Origin: a virus
Strand: one strand, 5' to 3'
Virus record (IMG/VR): IMGVR_UViG_3300045012_000053
Span: 37,361 to 101,360 of that record
Length of the DNA: 64,000 nucleotides
Below are positions 2,338 through 42,573 of this stretch, piece after piece. Position 1 is the stretch's first letter. The number at the start of each line of letters is the position of its first letter. The notes beneath the pieces were generated by a model. It was not told the origin of the DNA, did not search any database, and worked only from the letters and a program-made list of their open reading frames with translations. The position numbers and the translations under genes are program-made.

Positions 2338-2385
2338 GGGCGTGCCACTAACACGCCCTCCTACTCTTTAGTGGAGAGTATCATG
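2338..2385 (+). promoter_or_regulatory. Twin-hairpin kissing-loop leader occluding the SD of an EndoVII gene (copy 1)
   Basis: GGGCGTG-CCACTAA-CACGCCC then TACTCT-TTAGTGG-AGAGTA; the loops are exact reverse complements; ATG at 2383. Confidence 0.65.
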
Positions 2386-10900: not shown

Positions 10901-11926
10901 ATGAGCGGACCAAATCCCTCAGCATCAAACGTAGCAAACGTCCTGACAGCACAGGCAATCATTTTCGACAAGGAACTGATTCCGAACTTGAAGGGCAACA
11001 CCAACGCATTCGTTGGCGCGGCAGAACGTCGTGTTCAGGGCCTTCACATGGGCGTGAACCGTACGTTCTTCCAGTACAACACACTTTCGGGTGACGTTGT
11101 GCAGAACTCCGATGGTACCGTGGGCAACCCGGAAACCATCACTCAGTTGTCGTCTCCGGCACAGATCGGAGAATGGAACAACTACAGCAACTTCTCATCG
11201 TTCGCTATCGCAGCGGCGATTGACGAGCTTGTTGGCAACAGCGCAGTCGAACTTGGCTACCAAGCCGGGCAGTCGATCAGCGAGTTGTACAGCGCAGTTG
11301 CAGACAGCGCATCTGGTGTGGACGCAAACGTCAACCAGTCGTCGTTGCTTGCATCTCCGTACACCATTGACTTGGGCACCATCCGTGAATTGAAGCAGCA
11401 GCTTGTTTCAAAGAACGTATTGCCTTGCAAGCGTGGCATGTTCTTGGGCGCAATCAGCCCGAACGTGTTGGGTGACATCTACAACGCAACGACAGTGAAC
11501 AACTCTATCGTTGACTTGTGGAAGTACGAAAACATGGAGAAGTTTGATGCAATGGCAGGCAGCGACCAGAACAAGGTCATTGTCCTACCGGGCACCAACA
11601 TCGGCTTCATGCAGACCCCGTTCGTAACCACAACGGCCAACTACAACGGCTCGGGTAAGATCGGATACCGCACATATGTTTTTGGCAATTATGCCATGAT
11701 CGGTGTCTGGCTTCAAGTGCCGGGAGACACTGATCTTGATGAAGGCGATTGGAAGACCATCGATTGCCGCGTCGTGACAGATGCCCCTGCATCCAGCTTT
11801 GACCCTGTCTCAACAATTGGTGGGTGGTGCAGCTATAAGTTCCACCAGACAGTTACGTTGCCACCAGCAACTGGCGCGAATACCCAGCGTATTCGCTACA
11901 TTGACTCGGTTCCGGCAATTCAGTAA
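10901..11926 (+). CDS. Major capsid protein (N4-gp56-like)
   Basis: 341 aa; position; ELGYQAGQS..., DPVSTIGGWCSYKF pattern; strongly biased codons. Confidence 0.8.
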   Translation: MSGPNPSASNVANVLTAQAIIFDKELIPNLKGNTNAFVGAAERRVQGLHMGVNRTFFQYNTLSGDVVQNSDGTVGNPETITQLSSPAQIGEWNNYSNFSSFAIAAAIDELVGNSAVELGYQAGQSISELYSAVADSASGVDANVNQSSLLASPYTIDLGTIRELKQQLVSKNVLPCKRGMFLGAISPNVLGDIYNATTVNNSIVDLWKYENMEKFDAMAGSDQNKVIVLPGTNIGFMQTPFVTTTANYNGSGKIGYRTYVFGNYAMIGVWLQVPGDTDLDEGDWKTIDCRVVTDAPASSFDPVSTIGGWCSYKFHQTVTLPPATGANTQRIRYIDSVPAIQ

Positions 11927-11935
11927 ATATTCCTC

Positions 11936-11964
11936 TTGACACAGGTTGCAACTTGTGTTAAGAT
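11936..11964 (+). promoter_or_regulatory. sigma70-type promoter for the EndoVII gene
   Basis: TTGACA-N17-TAAGAT with extended -10 TG; spacer is an imperfect palindrome. Confidence 0.7.
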
Positions 11965-11967
11965 GCA

Positions 11968-12028
11968 GATTGGGGGTGTGTGCCCAAACACACGCCCCTA
12001 ATCAACTCTTTTGGGAGAGTATAAAGTG
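11968..12028 (+). promoter_or_regulatory. Twin-hairpin kissing-loop leader occluding the SD of an EndoVII gene (copy 2)
   Basis: 15-bp stem with loop CCCAAA (11983-11988), then ACTCT-TTTGGG-AGAGT; loops complementary; GTG at 12026. Confidence 0.65.
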
Positions 12029-12391
12029 AAAACATCGACTTTGAAAGTTCGTCAATGGCGTGAGAAAAATACAGAACGTAATCGAAACAATGGCCGTCGC
12101 TGGTTTGAGAAAAACAGGCAATATGATAGGCTACGTCGACACAGTCTCACACAAGAACAATACGACGCAAAGATGCAAGAGCAAGATAGTCGTTGCGCTG
12201 TCTGCTATAAAGAATTCACAGGAACGCCGCACGTTGACCATAATCACAGATGCTGCCCAATACGAAGAAGTTGTGTCAAATGCCGACGCGGCCTTCTCTG
12301 TGAAGATTGTAATCTAGGCCTCGGCAGATTCAAAGACTCAATAGAAGTTCTCAGCAACGCAATCGAATATCTCAAAGGATACAAACAATGA
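12026..12391 (+). CDS. Endonuclease VII-family HNH (homing) endonuclease
   Basis: QDSRCAVC...HVDHNH...RGLLCEDCNLGLG. Confidence 0.9.
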   Translation: MKTSTLKVRQWREKNTERNRNNGRRWFEKNRQYDRLRRHSLTQEQYDAKMQEQDSRCAVCYKEFTGTPHVDHNHRCCPIRRSCVKCRRGLLCEDCNLGLGRFKDSIEVLSNAIEYLKGYKQ

Positions 12392-13080
12392 CCATTCATC
12401 AGCCGGGCCAGCCCTTCATCAAAGGCACGGATGTCGAGAATCCGTTCAACGAACGACACGACATAGACGCTACACATGAAGCGATTCAACAGATGCTCGC
12501 GGGCGGCACGCCGAACTGGGTGAAGTGGCCGCACGAGTATAAGTCATACGTTAAAGAGTCATTCGCCGCCGAGAAAGAAATCTCGAACAAGATGGCAGCG
12601 GCGTACAAGTGGGACGATCAGGAGAACCTCACGAACGAGGCCGCTCGTCACATCAATCGAACCACCACAAGAGATTTTTTGAAGAAGTTAAACGATAACG
12701 GCATTAAGACGGCGATCTTCGATAACGGCTGGGTAGGACCCGGCGGCATTCCGACGGTCGGATTGTTTTGTGTTCCCCCCTCGAATCCGCGCAAGCTTCG
12801 TCCTGTTTGCTACATGGATGTGCCCGCGATGTGGGAGTGGAGCGTTCTCCTTCTAGACAGCCACGGCATCCCGAACGGGGAGAAGTCGCGCGGATGGCGC
12901 ACCATAGCGATTCAGCTCGTCGAGAAAGAGATCATCACCGAACAAGAGTGCCACAAAATTTTTGGGGTACCATCACCCAATGCAGTATCCGCCAGATATT
13001 TCCGCAGTCTTTGGGAGAAGCGTAACGGCAAACGTTACATGGATATCGAAGATCAGGAAAGTCTCGGACAATCTGCCTGA
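12388..13080 (+). CDS. Hypothetical head-module protein
   Basis: 230-aa ORF with SD. Confidence 0.7.
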   Translation: MTIHQPGQPFIKGTDVENPFNERHDIDATHEAIQQMLAGGTPNWVKWPHEYKSYVKESFAAEKEISNKMAAAYKWDDQENLTNEAARHINRTTTRDFLKKLNDNGIKTAIFDNGWVGPGGIPTVGLFCVPPSNPRKLRPVCYMDVPAMWEWSVLLLDSHGIPNGEKSRGWRTIAIQLVEKEIITEQECHKIFGVPSPNAVSARYFRSLWEKRNGKRYMDIEDQESLGQSA

Positions 13081-13133
13081 CCCCGGGCTAGTACAGGGCG
13101 GTTGAAGAAGTTTGCCAACCTTGAAGGTGTAAA

Positions 13134-13723: not shown

Positions 13724-13750
13724 GGGGCGGCGGTTCCGCCCCATTCTTTT
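13724..13750 (+). terminator. Intrinsic terminator
   Basis: GGGGCGG-cggtt-CCGCCCC followed by attctttt. Confidence 0.6.
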
Positions 13751-13864
13751 CTCCGAGGAAAGATGACGACAGTAGCCACCACACAAACTTCTCAATCGAC
13801 CTCCTTCGGCTGCATCCAAACACAATTTAAAAGCGCTCCCACCGCTGCGCTTGAGGTATTTTAA

Positions 13865-31300: not shown

Positions 31301-33696
31301 CACCAAGCACCACAGGAGTTCATGAAGGGCCTGCCGATGGCGGACTACCAGAAGGAGAACAAGCTGGAGCCGGAGGAGCAGGAGAAAAACCGAATGGACC
31401 TGCTGCAAGAGTTTCATCCGAAGAAGCACGAGCGGCTGATGAAGCTGGCGGCGGGAAAGAAGGAAAACGAGAAGAGCAAGCAAACCTAAGTAAGGAAGAT
31501 GAAGAAGCGTTCCTTACTAGCGAGTATCATACACCTTTAAAGCAGAGATACAATGTCGAAGTCACTGAAGGTGGGGAGACTCGCAACGAGGCGGTTGATG
31601 CGTTTTCTCACAAGCAGGCGATGAAGGCCGTACAAAAAGAGTTTCCTAATGCTCAAGAATGGAGCGTCGGGGAGCGCGCATCGATTCCGAATGAGGGCGG
31701 TTACTCGGTTCCGAACAAGGCTCCTCTGTTCACCCCCGGAAGTAAGGGCGGGAGAATGCCTATTGAAAACACCATGAAGCACGAGCTAGGTCACTACATG
31801 GTGGGGCACAACGAAGGATTTTTATCCGACGGTGTTTTGAGACACACTCATCCCGATATGCCGAAGGGTGTCAATGCTGCTGTATTTTGGGATAACGGAC
31901 AGTTCTATGACGCTGCCACGCGTCGCATCAAAGCAGAGAAGTTGCCCGGCGTGATACGCATGCTAATGGGCGGCGTGGCTGCGGACGAAGCTTTCTCCGA
32001 TCTCCCTCGCGATAAGAGCATTCAGTTCGACCCGAAAGCGGGCGGGGACGGCACGATGGCTCTTCGATTCTTGCGCACAGCGGGATTCGATCACGATACC
32101 GCCATGAGTATGATGCACGCTGCGGTAGATCAAGCAAAAGAACACTTGACAAAACCAGCGGTTTCTGATATCATAAATGAAAATGCAGGGGTGCGCGAGA
32201 ACAATCTCTCGACCCAGTACCACTATAGTCCGGAAAGACTCAAGGCTATGGGAGATGAAGCGTCGAGAAGACTAGGAGAACAAAATGAGCCTAACAACGG
32301 AAGAGCTGGCACAACAGGCGATCAAATCCGCGCAGCAAATGTCGGAGGAAGAGAAGGCGAAGCTGCGGGAACAGTTGGAGAAAGAGTTCAAACCCCGCAA
32401 GTAAGTGATCGCGTATCAACCCGCGTGCCGGAAGGGAAGGCCGCGACGGAGAACCCGCTGGAAGGCGAGCCTCTAGTCGTTGGTAGAGAGGCATTGAAGA
32501 ACACGCCGGAGAAGCTGCAACAGAAGTTCGCGGACACGGTTCGCGATTACCCGGGCGTGAAGATTCCGGCAGGCGTGAAGGACCCGGGCAAGGTCATGGA
32601 CCGCTTCGTGAGTCACGTGAAGGACAACTTGAAGTTCATCTACGATCAGGTTCCCCCGGAGAAGCAGGCCGCGAACGCCAAGTGGTACGAGTCTGCAAAC
32701 AAGCTGTCGAAAGATTTGGCGGACCAGCACGGCATTTCGGAGCCGCAGTCGGCTGCAACCATCGCGACCCAGTCGCCTCAAAAGGACTGGGACATGAACG
32801 TCTCGCTGGCGCGCCGTATCGCTGACATTCACACGAATCACCAAGACACGGTCACGACTCCCGAGATGCTTCAAAAGGGCCGCGACATCGTGAAGAACAC
32901 AGGGGCTAACGAAGACCTAGGGAAGGCGCTCGACAACTTGGAGGGAAAGAAGTTCTCCCAGTTGACCGACCCGTACGACCGCGCTGCTTGGGTACGTCTA
33001 TACGACGAAGCGCACAATGGTCGGGAGTTCCATTCCATCGACCCGGGCACTGGTGAGAACCGTGGGCTGCGCACCAACGCGGACGGGAGTCCGTCCAAGG
33101 TCGCGTGGGGTTCCCTGCCGCAGATCGACAACGCTCTCTCAGTCTTGGACAATGGAAGCAGAGAGAATATTTCGGAACGCTTGGGCGGTATGCACAAGGT
33201 TCGTAACTTCTACAACAACATCATTGACCCGACCAACGATCAGGACGTAACGATTGACACCCACGCGGTCGCTGCGGGGTTGATGCAGCCGCTGGGCGGT
33301 AGCGCGCCGGAAGTGCTGGACAACTTCGGCAAGGCTGGGAAGCACACCGGAACCGGAGTGAAGGGAACGTACCCGCTTTACGCGGACGCGTACCGTCAAG
33401 CTGCCGGGGAGCTGGGCATCAAGCCTCGTGAACTGCAATCGGTTGTGTGGGAGCACGTTCGTGAAATGTTCCCCTCGGAGTGGAAGTCGCCGGAGAACGA
33501 GAAGCTGGTGAAGAACGTTTGGAAGAAGTACTCCGACGGGAAACAGAGCCTCGATAAGACGCGCCAGCAGATTTTGAAAATCTCGGAAGAGGCCCAGAAG
33601 GGCGTGAACGACACTAGGGAAGCAGCCCAAAAGAAAGCGCTTGACAAACAGGCCAAACTAGTGTATGCTGGTAAAGAATCAGGAGGTGCGGAATGA
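28378..33696 (+). CDS. Giant polyvalent ejection protein: Gly-zipper TM region, two M41/FtsH-like Zn-protease domains, C-terminal HhH-GPD/Ogg2-like domain
   Basis: HEHGH...LGGPAFDE...GARAD; HELGH...MGGVAADE...AGGD; KVRNFYNN...TIDTH...ELQSVVW. Confidence 0.75.
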   Translation: MTDANATPDTLDSGPKQINVPPYPGTTRIENGQAFDVAGKVLGGVDDSGKPTGKAAPTPPAQTFDYGFGKQAKPATPAASGFDYGFGKHNDNPTKGTRFEGAEKIGNYFLAKPMEGEENAGVAHSIHGLLSFPNALYHAFSDPATPQEKVEIEQKMNQMRAGQGMPAASTLPAVPGQVIGAVTNTYDKTPKPPTRTQLALHRLIDAPADELDAKANRELETSRELWDKRHEWSGLIPTGTGISIPMNQAMALSGSLSGAADKVLSRIPMLGPLVNGISEKFEKGDISGGMTDLAGLKLMEAVHQEATGEPAVPSKMWHDKGNELGRAAGKLLSKASEVSDKANAAKEDFQRVVPPTKAAPYDANDYEIVRRGAEEQHKADKLSGGQGITDVESARDAVEDSRQAIENKRGGAVKANADRPITTNVFEDVANALFDKDQNVPGWRDRGMKVLEDYDFKDMTNGEADAVRKELVAKNRLKVQKPGDAASLRESDPVYAANEAVINSLRNGIYGSLQEAGVPEAYDWARDEAAHIRVRNAIDRQLYNGEKTLRGSGDASTARKIAAQSARGLSTVTGGGVGAAVGGLPGAIVGSAAGSVLGEGLSRAILPDDLTRNEMMARSFQNETATPGGPTVPESQAPNVPHPEGPAGPDLPPPPQPIAPVMPPPDHALHAALATRVGTTVERSSLNNLMTQFQQYLDSTPTQNLTDADRELLEQVNQSQGARRAKMAEAVQTAVEKNKAAREKWQQEVQKVQEKYAAEQKKSVAEAVTDKEKEQADLLADENIAHSPVMKATEKAMEIKGVEGRTPLQNMEHEHGHILAFAAEKLNPINFISESHPDALEHNAAASVQADVSDAEEGAKGLAQRVVGILGGPAFDEIHHDISINRNPGARADIARAREILRGEGGLKGDDLNKVFDALYDRAKEHVSNPEALALVRANAPLREAGLHENYHMSPGRLAEYVKKLQGVFNGNGETPSTTGVHEGPADGGLPEGEQAGAGGAGEKPNGPAARVSSEEARAADEAGGGKEGKREEQANLSKEDEEAFLTSEYHTPLKQRYNVEVTEGGETRNEAVDAFSHKQAMKAVQKEFPNAQEWSVGERASIPNEGGYSVPNKAPLFTPGSKGGRMPIENTMKHELGHYMVGHNEGFLSDGVLRHTHPDMPKGVNAAVFWDNGQFYDAATRRIKAEKLPGVIRMLMGGVAADEAFSDLPRDKSIQFDPKAGGDGTMALRFLRTAGFDHDTAMSMMHAAVDQAKEHLTKPAVSDIINENAGVRENNLSTQYHYSPERLKAMGDEASRRLGEQNEPNNGRAGTTGDQIRAANVGGREGEAAGTVGERVQTPQVSDRVSTRVPEGKAATENPLEGEPLVVGREALKNTPEKLQQKFADTVRDYPGVKIPAGVKDPGKVMDRFVSHVKDNLKFIYDQVPPEKQAANAKWYESANKLSKDLADQHGISEPQSAATIATQSPQKDWDMNVSLARRIADIHTNHQDTVTTPEMLQKGRDIVKNTGANEDLGKALDNLEGKKFSQLTDPYDRAAWVRLYDEAHNGREFHSIDPGTGENRGLRTNADGSPSKVAWGSLPQIDNALSVLDNGSRENISERLGGMHKVRNFYNNIIDPTNDQDVTIDTHAVAAGLMQPLGGSAPEVLDNFGKAGKHTGTGVKGTYPLYADAYRQAAGELGIKPRELQSVVWEHVREMFPSEWKSPENEKLVKNVWKKYSDGKQSLDKTRQQILKISEEAQKGVNDTREAAQKKALDKQAKLVYAGKESGGAE
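31286..31489 (+). CDS. Nested +1-frame ORF (67 aa) after protease domain 1; candidate inhibitor
   Basis: AAGGAG SD 6 nt before ATG; charged helical product; the overlapped main frame is a low-complexity G/E/A/P linker. Confidence 0.55.
   Translation: METVKHQAPQEFMKGLPMADYQKENKLEPEEQEKNRMDLLQEFHPKKHERLMKLAAGKKENEKSKQT
32146..32174 (+). promoter_or_regulatory. Intragenic sigma70 promoter upstream of nested ORF 32285
   Basis: TTGACA-N17-TATCAT with extended -10 TG. Confidence 0.6.
32285..32404 (+). CDS. Nested +1-frame ORF (39 aa, MSLTTEELAQQAIKSAQQMSEEEKAKLREQLEKEFKPRK) after protease domain 2; candidate inhibitor
   Basis: AGGAG SD 6 nt before ATG; promoter upstream; clean amphipathic helices; the main frame is a G/R/A linker. 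Confidence 0.55.
   Translation: MSLTTEELAQQAIKSAQQMSEEEKAKLREQLEKEFKPRK
33641..33669 (+). promoter_or_regulatory. Intragenic sigma70 promoter at the 3' end of the giant gene
   Basis: TTGACA-N17-TATGCT. Confidence 0.65.
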
Positions 33697-35992: not shown

Positions 35993-36870
35993 AGTTGAAA
36001 CCCCAGTCCGGCCTTTTCAGACCATGACTTCCTTTCATCGATTTGACTTCCGATCTTGGTGTAGCGCTCCGTAACGTCACCCGCTGCGTGGCCTACCCAA
36101 AACTTGATGAGCGTCGCGGGTACGTTGTTCGCTTGGAGAAGAGTGATGCGAAAGCGGCGCAAGCTGTGAAACCCGGGGATGTGGAGAGCGGCCAGCTGAC
36201 GGCGGTATGTCTCATCGGAAGATGGGAACAGCGGCGTTCCCGATTCGCGGTTCCCAAATTGAGAACGGAGGAGCTGGTTCAGCTGAGGGTCCAAGTCGAC
36301 CGTGCGGGTGCCCGCCTTTGTCTTCGTGTGCGGCTGGGTCTCCCCGTCAACCCGGGTAGAATGGACGCGGAGCGTACCCGCCTCCCCGTCCCAGTCCCCC
36401 ACAGTCAAGGACAGTGCTTCTCCTATTCTAAGGCCCGTCCCGGCCAGTAGGGCTACCAAGACCCTAGTTTCGCTAGAAGTCGTCCCCACGGCCCCCTGTA
36501 TTGCAGGAAGGGGGCATATAGGAGCCTTTTGAGACATCGGGTCGACCCGGGGGGAGTCGATAAACCGGGCGTTCCACGTGCGGGGGTAGAGCTGGTTGCC
36601 CTCTTCGTCCACCGCCGACTTCACGATCTGTTTCACCAAGCTGACCGCCAAGGTAATGGTGGAAGGACTCAGTCCGGCCTCGGTGAGACGGCCTACGAGC
36701 ATCTTGGCGGTCTTGTTGCCGACGTCCGCCATTTCCACCCCGCCGATCAAGGGTAAGATGCGAGCGTCTAGAAGGGAACGGTAAACGTGCAGAGTGTTCG
36801 GTCTGATTGGGTCAGACTTCCGGCTGGTTATCTCCGATATGAACGCTTCTGCTTGTTGTTTAAAGTTCAT
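35989..36870 (-). CDS. int: Tyrosine recombinase / integrase
   Basis: GLRIGE, KTK, HSLRR, GH...TERY catalytic residues; GGAG SD before ATG 36870. Confidence 0.9.
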   Translation of the reverse strand: MNFKQQAEAFISEITSRKSDPIRPNTLHVYRSLLDARILPLIGGVEMADVGNKTAKMLVGRLTEAGLSPSTITLAVSLVKQIVKSAVDEEGNQLYPRTWNARFIDSPRVDPMSQKAPICPLPAIQGAVGTTSSETRVLVALLAGTGLRIGEALSLTVGDWDGEAGTLRVHSTRVDGETQPHTKTKAGTRTVDLDPQLNQLLRSQFGNRESGTPLFPSSDETYRRQLAALHIPGFHSLRRFRITLLQANNVPATLIKFWVGHAAGDVTERYTKIGSQIDERKSWSEKAGLGFQL

Positions 36871-36886
36871 CGCATTCTCCACAGAC

Positions 36887-36915
36887 AGACTACCACAAGA
36901 CGAGAACTTTGTCAA
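36887..36915 (-). promoter_or_regulatory. sigma70 promoter of the integrase
   Basis: TTGACA-N17-TAGTCT with TG extension. Confidence 0.65.
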
Positions 36916-41237: not shown

Positions 41238-41627
41238 TCATCGAGGGTAGCTCGCGAGCACGCCGAACGGATTGATCTGGTCCGGGCGGGTGCGCTTGTC
41301 CACCACGGTCTTGGTGTTGTCGAGAACGGTGAGCAGGATGGACGCAATGGCGATGGTCAGCCCTGCTTGCGGCTGGGGCGGCTTCCCTGCGTGCTCCCGC
41401 TTGATTGTGCGCACTAGTTCGCCCCGGAGCTGACGGTGAGACATCTTCGGGACAGCCTTCCCATACAGTTCCAGCCGCTCCTGTTCCGCCTTCCGTTCCG
41501 CTGCGGCCTTCTCCAAGGCGGCGCGCAACTCAGCTTGCTGTTCTGCGGTGAGAACTACCGCAGCGGGGGCCTTCTTCACGTTCTTCTTAAACGGCTTCTT
41601 GTCGCTCATTTTTCTCTCCTGTACCAT
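41238..41627 (-). CDS. Hypothetical basic protein
   Basis: ORF with SD before MSDKK. Confidence 0.55.
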   Translation of the reverse strand: MVQERKMSDKKPFKKNVKKAPAAVVLTAEQQAELRAALEKAAAERKAEQERLELYGKAVPKMSHRQLRGELVRTIKREHAGKPPQPQAGLTIAIASILLTVLDNTKTVVDKRTRPDQINPFGVLASYPR

Positions 41628-42037
41628 CCGCCGATTCGTAACTTTTTAGCGGGCGGTGAATTTAAATAAGATTGAAACGGAATGCACAATTTCAAAACTT
41701 TTGGACGTCTTTCCAATGCTCCAAGAATTCGATTACATAACGTGCACAAGAGACCTCGAACTCTTTTTAATCCTCCGTGTTCGTGGTCTATATTTAAGGT
41801 CTTCCAGCGCCCTTCTTTACTTGTCTTTGACCCGCAAATGGCGCAACGACCTTTTTGAAATCGAAACAAAGACCGAACTTGTTCCGACGTTAAGCCGTAT
41901 TGAGACATCCACATATACGCTCTCTTGATGCTTTTTCCTTTCTTTCGATACCAAGCGCGTATCTGAGCGTTGATTCTATTTCGGTTTTTATTTCTGTAAA
42001 TCGCCATCCTTTCAAGTTTGTTTAATTTTGCCATCAT
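41606..42037 (-). CDS. Endonuclease VII-family HNH endonuclease
   Basis: YGLT...QKGRCAIC...IDHEH...VRGLLCTLCN; AT-rich. Confidence 0.9.
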   Translation of the reverse strand: MMAKLNKLERMAIYRNKNRNRINAQIRAWYRKKGKSIKRAYMWMSQYGLTSEQVRSLFRFQKGRCAICGSKTSKEGRWKTLNIDHEHGGLKRVRGLLCTLCNRILGALERRPKVLKLCIPFQSYLNSPPAKKLRIGGWYRREK

Positions 42038-42189
42038 TAATCACCGATACTATTTTTCCTGTTCTGCATTTCCAATGCCAAGTCCCATCTTCAAAACAGA
42101 TCGCCTTGTGTTTGCAAACGTAACAGCCACCGCACCGGGAACACAGGAACAGATACTCCCCGTGCATACTTACCAGCTTGCAGTTATGC

Positions 42190-42573
42190 TTACTCATGCT
42201 GGTGATTAGAGAACCAGCAGGTTGGCATTGTTTCCACTTCGATCTCGTAATGCGCTAATCGTCGCAGCACGCCGATCAACTTCAACGAAGATGAATCATA
42301 AGATGAGGCAAATTTTACGTCGTGCGTGAAAACCGGGCGTCCTGTAGGCGTCACGCCAGCCAAGTACTGAGGAGCGCTCTCTCTCATCACGATCACGTGG
42401 GAGGAGAATTTATCCGCCAGTGTGAGAATTTCGGTGTTACTTGGAGGCGCGTAAAAGTGCGCGTGCCCGCGTTCCACGTCCCGCAAGTATTTCTCTGCTA
42501 AAGTATGAATATCTGTCATCACAGTCCTTTCCAAATCTAAGGGCAGTCTAGCATAAGACTGCCCCCTTGTCAA
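42190..42573 (-). CDS. Hypothetical protein (true start probably MTDIH)
   Basis: ORF downstream of a promoter. Confidence 0.55.
   Translation of the reverse strand: MTRGQSYARLPLDLERTVMTDIHTLAEKYLRDVERGHAHFYAPPSNTEILTLADKFSSHVIVMRESAPQYLAGVTPTGRPVFTHDVKFASSYDSSSLKLIGVLRRLAHYEIEVETMPTCWFSNHQHE
42545..42573 (-). promoter_or_regulatory. sigma70 promoter overlapped by a 9-bp inverted repeat
   Basis: TTGACA-N17-TAGACT; GGGCAGTCT/AGACTGCCC. Confidence 0.6.

Follow-up and report, generated by a model that had tools for sequence, protein, structure and literature searches.

Homing endonucleases belong to the proteins whose synthesis must be limited. Control by means of kissing loops is known from plasmids, where the antisense systems of ColE1 (RNA I/RNA II) and R1 (CopA/CopT) involve two separate RNAs, and where a loop pairing that adjoins the Shine-Dalgarno sequence (SD) can also activate translation, as it does in the rep pseudoknot of the IncB/IncI-alpha plasmids. 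The dimerisation initiation site (DIS) of HIV-1 is a hairpin with a 9-nt loop in which a 6-nt palindrome is flanked by two nucleotides on one side and one on the other (2+1), and in riboswitches of the preQ1-II and SAM-II types the SD lies within a pseudoknot helix. The described systems that come closest to the locus presented here are the homing endonucleases of the T-even phages, in which RNA structures that sequester the ribosome-binding site (RBS) limit translation (PMC2988022); such hairpins have been reviewed for I-TevI, I-TevII, I-TevIII, segB and Aeh1 mobE (PMC2988022). An RNA structure that limits the translation of a phage homing endonuclease is in itself a known kind of element. 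What has not been described is the architecture found here, which combines hypervariable but compensated kissing loops, a hairpin that embeds a promoter, and use across unrelated nuclease families. Literature searches turned up no kissing-loop leader for homing endonucleases, and the text of a catalogue with some 10,000 candidates for structured viral RNAs (PMC10690425) contains no such leader, although its supplement may hold one as an unnamed entry. The covariance models of Rfam 15 gave no match at gathering thresholds in the window as a whole, and within 11800-12200 only two matches at chance level (E 1.5 and 2.7).

The window, i.e. the whole stretch of 64,000 nucleotides that was analysed, forms the final 64 kb of a record of 101,360 bp that is complete, belongs to an uncultured virus and has direct terminal repeats. 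The full stretch is also present in a soil metagenome run, from which it may derive. Positions given below are those of the window, unless they are assigned to the genome. The cassette and the gene that precedes it are made up as follows.

10901..11926, plus strand: upstream gene, probable major capsid protein, 341 aa (language-model similarity and gene order)
11934..11963, plus strand: H0, a 13-bp hairpin/palindrome around TGCA, with arms 11934-11946 and 11951-11963 (minimum-free-energy fold, covarying arms)
11936..11964, plus strand: predicted sigma-70-type promoter, TTGACA (11936-11941), 17 nt with TG, TAAGAT (11959-11964) (promoter scan, 10/12 with TG)
11968..12003, plus strand: H1, a 15-bp G+C-rich hairpin with its core at 11972-11999 and GATT/AATC as the lower four pairs (sequence, covariation)
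11983..11988, plus strand: loop 1, CCCAAA, exactly complementary to loop 2 (sequence, covariation)
12004, plus strand: the linker base A between H1 and H2 (sequence)
12005..12020, plus strand: H2, ACTCT [TTTGGG] AGAGT, a weak hairpin (arms 12005-12009 and 12016-12020) with the SD in its loop and 3' arm (sequence, covariation)
12010..12015, plus strand: loop 2, TTTGGG, of which the final two G form the first half of the GGAG of the SD (sequence, covariation)
12013..12019, plus strand: Shine-Dalgarno sequence GGGAGAG, core GGAG at 12014-12017, 8 nt 5' of the start codon (sequence)
12026..12391, plus strand: free-standing homing-endonuclease-like gene of the Endonuclease VII family, 121 aa, GTG start (Pfam PF02945)

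The promoter, the loop of H1, H2 and the GTG at 12026 had all been named in a sequence-only reading of this DNA, and each of them was recovered in its place. Folding of the 105-nt leader gives three hairpins with -48.4 kcal/mol (z = -7.0; none of 200 shuffles was as good), and the pattern of H2 occurs twice in the 64-kb window against an expected 0.03 occurrences. The SD at 12013-12019 is paired in part with loop 1 and in part within the stem of H2.

The location of the element directly after a capsid gene, which had also been proposed, holds as well, with the capsid identity coming from language-model similarity and gene order: an Atlas feature search connects the product (0.98) to Phage_capsid_3/4 and to N4-gp56-type capsid clusters, and the genes run from terminase via portal to 10901-11926, which is probably the major capsid gene. 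The product has no match in Pfam or in PHROGs, and searches of PHROGs and of PDB sequences gave no informative match for the neighbouring virion genes. Contigs from one run of a soil metatranscriptome (2016 library) match the capsid gene within 11021-11855, among them a 261-nt piece (11595-11855) with zero differences that could stem from DNA carry-over. It is the one RNA library in which the phage was seen, in the form of contigs of the capsid gene; none of them extends over 11871-13000, which speaks neither for nor against transcription of the cassette.

The ORF at 12026-12391 matches the Pfam model Endonuclease_7 (PF02945) with an E-value of 7e-19 (68 bits at a cut-off of 23.6), which marks it as a free-standing homing-endonuclease-like gene with predicted homing and cleavage activity; the close relative L006 has an ATG at the position of its GTG. 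A tblastn search with the endonuclease recovered only relatives of less than 60% identity, mostly from actinobacterial phages, and a blastn search with 10901-13100 against 50,697 phage records gave no match. The gene ends in an ATGA overlap, in which its stop codon shares bases with the ATG (12388) of the virion gene that follows. The last codons of the nuclease gene (AAAGGATACAAACAATGA, 12385-12391) coincide with the stretch that serves nuclease-free relatives as SD and ATG for that virion gene (AAAGGAAAACCAATGAG), so that the insertion has absorbed the RBS of the downstream gene.

The site between the capsid gene and the next gene is polymorphic among relatives, with the cassette present in L274, L276 and L280 and absent from L275, L277 and L278. 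In the latter three the stretch from the capsid stop to the next gene (82-103 nt) contains no promoter, H0, H1 or H2. Since the nuclease-free relatives lack the promoter, the palindrome and both hairpins, all these parts belong to the mobile cassette; by this comparison the region from about 11927 to 12385 is the insertion. We take 11927-12391 as one mobile cassette, of which the 3' end of the capsid gene (..ATTCAGTAA) forms the left border.

To collect further leaders, a covariance model was built from the two nested hairpins only, i.e. the loop columns were not modelled as pairs. The alignment was made with Infernal from a two-sequence seed, and MAFFT alignments were dropped because of misplaced gaps. 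The model matched 92 copies in viral contigs, 79 of which are distinct, and homologous elements, on whose occurrence elsewhere the sequence-only reading had made itself depend, are thereby present in number. Over the 79 distinct sequences, the loop-loop helix (7 bp) is paired in 100% of the cells, with double-sided changes at five of its seven pairs, three to five pair types at each of the three central pairs, and 23 different central triplets across the family. H1 is paired in 98.4% of the cells and shows changes on both sides at 10 of 10 modelled pairs, and H2 is paired in 99.3% with double changes at three of four pairs. None of 500 shuffles reached the observed values, and pairing fell to about 53% when the partner columns were slid. 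The loop pairs among the relatives of the endonuclease illustrate the range (CCTAGAA/TTCTAGG, CACGAA/TTCGTG, CCAAGAA/TTCTTGG, CCCTTAA/TTAAGGG and CCTCAAA/TTTGAGG).

A separate pattern search, in which the loop ends and the SD were fixed and the three central loop bases were left free, gave complementary central triplets in 71 of 84 matches in viral contigs, compared with 3 of 80 in the genomes of bacteria and archaea, and none of these 3 had an H1 stem; the chance of a complementary triplet is 1 in 64. Two subsets are free of ascertainment by this pattern, namely the sequences that do not match it (111 of 112 cells Watson-Crick) and those found via protein homology (87 of 87). The loop-loop, H1 and H2 helices are established by covariation, which bears out, across the family, the earlier proposals of two hairpins with a buried SD and of a loop-loop pairing that is kept through compensatory change. 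Apart from the stems, conservation is seen in the SD and, within the loops, at CC/GG and AA/UU; the GG and AGA(G) of the SD region and the sequence TCTTT are nearly invariant in the alignment. Weak matches at 13724-13768 of the window, L006:3340 and L008:3198 turned out to be ordinary terminator-like hairpins and are not counted as family members.

Two other copies belong to the same genome.

2338..2385, plus strand: leader copy 1, with the ATG at 2383 (sequence; model match E 1.6e-6)
36315-36357 of the genome: further leader copy just outside the window, with loops CCTATA/TATAGG (sequence)

Copy 1 consists of H1 GGGCGTG [CCACTAA] CACGCCC and H2 ACTCT [TTAGTGG] AGAGT, and is preceded by a palindrome of 10 bp (TTGTGCACAA, 2322-2331). 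Reading out copies 1 and 2 side by side confirms that their loops differ with the pairing and the H2 stem ACTCT/AGAGT kept. The ORF downstream of copy 1 (2383-2742) is a paralogue of the Endonuclease VII gene at 12026, with 41% identity. The copy at 36315-36357 (within L031:1700-2300, which corresponds to 36200-36800 of the genome) comes directly after a tRNA-like 3' end (..CCA), ahead of an HNH-type gene of 144-145 aa, and its H0 reads CTTCGGGG TTGC TCCCGAAG. Another Endonuclease VII paralogue, on the minus strand at 41606-42037, is without a kissing leader. A small Cys-rich (zinc-ribbon-like) ORF ends just before the start of this paralogue (41606-42190, minus strand).

The genes that follow the leaders are diverse. 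Endonuclease_7 accounts for 31 of the 74 downstream ORFs and GIY-YIG for 21 (17 of these with NUMOD3); the others include several with HNH models, a few of the PD-(D/E)XK type (DUF559, Vsr, PDDEXK_5) and about seven small zinc-ribbon-rich proteins without a Pfam family. Judged from these annotations, the leader is common to at least four unrelated nuclease families. A conserved gene end ..AT[TC]CA[AG]TAA lies within 70 nt of 26 of the 79 leaders, and the leaders at this end precede genes that fall, by heuristic classes, into the GIY-YIG-like or Endonuclease VII-like groups. The site 3' of the capsid end ..AT[TC]CA[AG]TAA is an insertion hot spot (e.g. in L004, L010, L011, L062, L095, L101 and L114), and the cassettes that occupy it in different relatives have the same promoter and leader in common.

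Upstream of H1, the -35 hexamer and the greater part of the -10 hexamer lie in the stem of H0, whose pairing crosses both of them. A palindrome in the promoter spacer had been noted before and was taken for an autoregulatory operator. The palindrome is there, and with 13 bp it is longer than was noted, but the combination of the GTTGCAAC palindrome and promoter precedes GIY-YIG-like genes as well as Endonuclease VII genes, which argues that it is no operator for the Endonuclease VII protein. The arms of H0 covary in 21 distinct homologues, and their mismatches are G-T in 21 cases versus A-C in 8 (four of these at the outermost position), a preference that points to a single-strand hairpin. Other family members have in this place a stem of 6-7 bp with a loop of 7-9 nt, and by our count some 15 of 19 copies with such loops contain a 6-nt palindrome (TTATAA, TAATTA, TCATGA, TTCGAA or TGATCA), where roughly 6% would be expected. 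In the 9-nt loops the palindrome is arranged as 2+6+1, as in the HIV-1 DIS, and in our copy the centre is likewise self-complementary (TGCA/TTGCAA); unlike the DIS, H0 overlaps a promoter and belongs to a phage mRNA instead of a retroviral genome, and dimerisation is putative here. H0 hairpins with a palindromic loop were seen in L012, L046, L048, L055, L056, L058, L060, L061, L070, L076, L086, L099, L100 and L108. As to its role, H0 may fold as a hairpin when transcription reads through, may provide a loop for dimerisation, or may be a dyad in the DNA.

These data also bear on whether the element acts at the level of RNA at all. That it works as DNA, be it as an operator for a protein, as a site of homing or recombination or as a cruciform, would agree with its travelling with mobile DNA and with H0 being palindromic through its centre in copies 1 and 2. 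The alignment of H1 is rich in G-U pairs (GU 25, UG 13), which places the structure on the sense-strand RNA; H0 likewise has many of them, and A-C pairs are rare. In the 9-nt loops of H0 the axis of the stem and that of the loop palindrome do not coincide but lie half a base apart, which speaks against a simple dyad in the DNA, and three nested or crossing helices with an SD and start codon at fixed spacing are a signature of RNA. We therefore regard a purely DNA-level function as extremely improbable.

With respect to the promoter itself, at least 21 distinct homologous leaders have a nearly invariant TTGACA, a second hexamer of the form TAnnnT, a 17-nt spacing and the TG, i.e. the conservation pattern of a sigma-70 promoter. 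At least 11 further sites of the form TTGACA-N17-(TGTGn)TAGnnT occur in this genome, mostly in the minus-strand early region, and this recurrent motif probably represents the host-RNA-polymerase promoters of the phage; none of these other promoter-like sites has a palindromic spacer. Sites of the form TTGACA-N17-TAGnnT were observed on the minus strand at 36915, 39255, 41012, 42573, 44001, 47712 and 52889 and on the plus strand at 32146 and 33641, usually with TTGTGn before the second hexamer, and several of them lie directly 5' of an SD and ATG. The predicted transcription start of the cassette falls at about 11971-11973, i.e. at the 5' end of the H1 core, and in most copies this core begins 6-8 nt 3' of the -10 hexamer. 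With the H1 core at the expected +1, the cassette's own mRNA would begin with H1. Family-wide conservation of the hexamers, the similar sites in the genome and the position of H1 all speak for the promoter that the sequence-only reading had proposed. A 12-codon ORF from an ATG that overlaps the -10 hexamer (11963) was rejected, as it is not conserved in L004, L006 and L010.

An arrangement in which the hexamers lie inside the stem of H0, and in which the H1 core follows the -10 by 6-8 nt in most class-1 copies, would be in line with a transcript-dependent switch. Read-through RNA would carry H0 and the full 15-bp H1, the cassette's own transcript would contain neither H0 nor the GATT side of the lower stem, and with the linker sequestered in one RNA species and free in the other the two would fold differently, such that one class pairs its loops and the other is translated. 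In agreement with this, H0 and the lower stem of H1 show compensatory changes and G-U pairs (e.g. GATT/AATC versus GAGT/ACTC), which implies that both are transcribed in some RNA, and homing endonuclease genes of T4 have promoters in regulatory hairpins (PMC2988022). Nevertheless, we consider a switch unlikely, because loop 1 (11983-11988) and H2 (12005-12020) both lie 3' of the predicted start (the -10 ends at 11964), so that neither transcript would be without the parts that mask the SD, and because the lower stem of H1 is not universal (H1 comprises 4-17 bp across the family).

We lean, by a modest margin of belief, towards the reading that a cis kissing-hairpin pseudoknot in the leader damps the translation of the nuclease. 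In outline, the cassette would consist of a host-type (sigma-70-like) promoter within H0, a leader of about 55 nt and the Endonuclease VII gene. The stable H1 would display a loop of 6-7 nt, every base of which pairs with one in the loop of the weak H2, and the GGAG would thereby be held doubly, the GG by the loop-loop helix and the AG(AG) by the stem of H2. The resulting pseudoknot would reduce binding of the 30S subunit, and the yield of nuclease would be low from transcripts of the cassette's own promoter as well as from read-through of the capsid gene. In this scheme, the pairing within one molecule and the repression of translation are the parts that we infer. The cis-damping reading fits both the need to limit the synthesis of homing endonucleases and the precedent of the T-even phages. 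It also agrees with the energetics: H2 by itself is weak (-3.1 kcal/mol in the copy at 12005-12020; family median -0.8, range -5.4 to +1.8), the loop-loop duplex is strong (median -7.4 kcal/mol, next to -15 for H1), and masking of the GGAG would consequently depend on the pairing with loop 1.

The likeness to the T-even hairpins lies in a cis RNA structure 5' of phage homing endonuclease genes in which the SD is buried, in a promoter embedded in a leader hairpin, and in the presumed aim of limiting or timing nuclease synthesis. The differences are that the SD is held here by a weak hairpin together with a loop-loop helix to a separate upstream hairpin, that the loops are hypervariable and always compensated, with no sequence similarity between the two systems, and that a single leader is in use with four or more unrelated nuclease families. 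In systems of the T4 type the SD sits in a stable local helix; here it is paired, the local helix H2 is weak, and most of the stability comes from the loop-loop helix. In the T4 type, moreover, RNA started at the embedded promoter lacks the inhibitory arm and can be translated, whereas here the promoter lies 5' of all masking parts, its transcripts are not freed, T4-style release does not apply, and no other means of release was seen. With the plasmid systems (ColE1, R1, IncB/IncI-alpha) the leader has in common complementary loops of 6-7 nt, specificity by loop, and pairing at or next to the SD; in contrast to the antisense RNAs and to the activation in IncB, a single mRNA leader carries both loops here, and the pairing includes the SD itself. 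As in riboswitches of the preQ1-II and SAM-II types, the SD is sequestered in a pseudoknot helix, but the leader has no conserved ligand pocket and its pairing bases vary, which sets it apart from riboswitches.

Whether the pairing takes place within one molecule is addressed by the geometry of the leader. The path from loop 1 to H2 (the 3' arm of H1 plus the linker) is mostly 12-16 nt long (range 10-18) despite an H1 of anything from 4 to 17 bp (r = -0.82), and its near-constancy suggests a constraint within one molecule. On the other hand, the short linker between H1 and H2 measures 1 nt in the present copy and 0-6 nt in most others (median 5 nt), whereas by an A-form estimate a coaxial stack of H1 (8-15 bp), a loop helix of 6-7 bp and H2 (4-5 bp) would need a connector of about 8-10 nt. 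Coaxial pairing in cis would therefore require the lower pairs of H1 to be open, which makes pairing between molecules a live rival.

In such an intermolecular mode, loop 1 of one leader would pair with loop 2 of another, giving dimers or chains, and translation would fall with concentration. H0, whose loop is usually self-complementary, may assist, and the loops would give every nuclease gene an 'address' of its own. The leader would then be an RNA-RNA recognition device, with a private address of 6-7 nt and a DIS-like H0 on read-through mRNAs that pair mutually. Adjacent hairpins joined by a linker of 0-6 nt suit pairing in trans better than a coaxial complex in cis, and the frequent palindromes in the H0 loops fit as well. 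In addition, the loops differ among all copies on one contig, but since only about 1.8 shared pairs would be expected their absence is not significant, and the central loop positions are near saturation, with 0.62 differences per site in pairs of sequences that have about 0.25 per site elsewhere, a comparison that is biased because the other positions are under constraint. Covariation cannot separate cis from trans, H0 would be missing from transcripts of the embedded promoter, and the path length discussed above favours the single molecule. Taken together, we hold pairing between molecules, and with it the recognition device, to be distinctly unlikely; if it were true, it would constitute a protein-free dosage limiter that is carried by selfish genes.

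The sign of the effect could also be the opposite of the damping that we favour, in that the structure aids expression as a 5' stabiliser against 5'-end-dependent decay, as an activating pseudoknot or as a ribosome standby site. The position of H1 at the extreme 5' end of the cassette's own transcript would suit a stabiliser, and the IncB/IncI-alpha plasmids provide activating pseudoknots that adjoin the SD. The pairing found here, however, covers the first two G of the GGAG and H2 pairs the remainder, and a stabiliser has no need of complementary loops, which leaves a positive role highly improbable.

A further reading takes H1 to be mainly a terminator or attenuator that replaces the terminator of the capsid gene, with the CTCTTT of H2 as U-tract and the loop pairing as a means to tune termination. 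Nuclease-free relatives do have a terminator-like hairpin (GGGGAGG..CCTCCCC) and a T-run at the same place, i.e. at the junction in L275, L277 and L278, a scan flags 11968-12003 plus AACTCTTTTG as terminator-like, and the TCTTT is nearly invariant. Across the family, however, the T-run starts 5 nt or more past the stem in most copies (median 5 nt), the leader also occurs away from capsid genes in this genome (after the tRNA gene and before packaging genes), and the match between loop 1 and loop 2 would be left without an explanation. We consider this very unlikely as the main function; H1 and the CTCTTT may possibly have a secondary, insulating role at the position of the capsid terminator. 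The junction hairpin of the nuclease-free relatives reads GGGGAGG TCGA TGCCTCCCC followed by the T-run (L275:2390-2510, L277:2012-2125 and L278:2099-2195), and its G-rich stem and the following TCT(C)TT..GGA look like H1 and H2 of the cassette. This resemblance may be a coincidence, or the leader may in part be derived from, or mimic, the native junction.

As enzymes that cut DNA and whose genes sit within essential operons of the phage, homing endonucleases must be kept at very low levels, and what has been described of the control of free-standing ones concerns, to our knowledge, largely the T4 group. The leader described here represents a compact and portable module of promoter and RNA that is found in many uncultured phages. 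As the module is common to at least four unrelated nuclease families, regulation seems to travel together with the selfish gene. The unusually clean covariation (23 loop variants, with all aligned loop positions paired) moreover makes the family a ready natural test set, which may be used for the thermodynamics of kissing loops, for orthogonal translational regulators and for the annotation of homing endonuclease cassettes in viromes.
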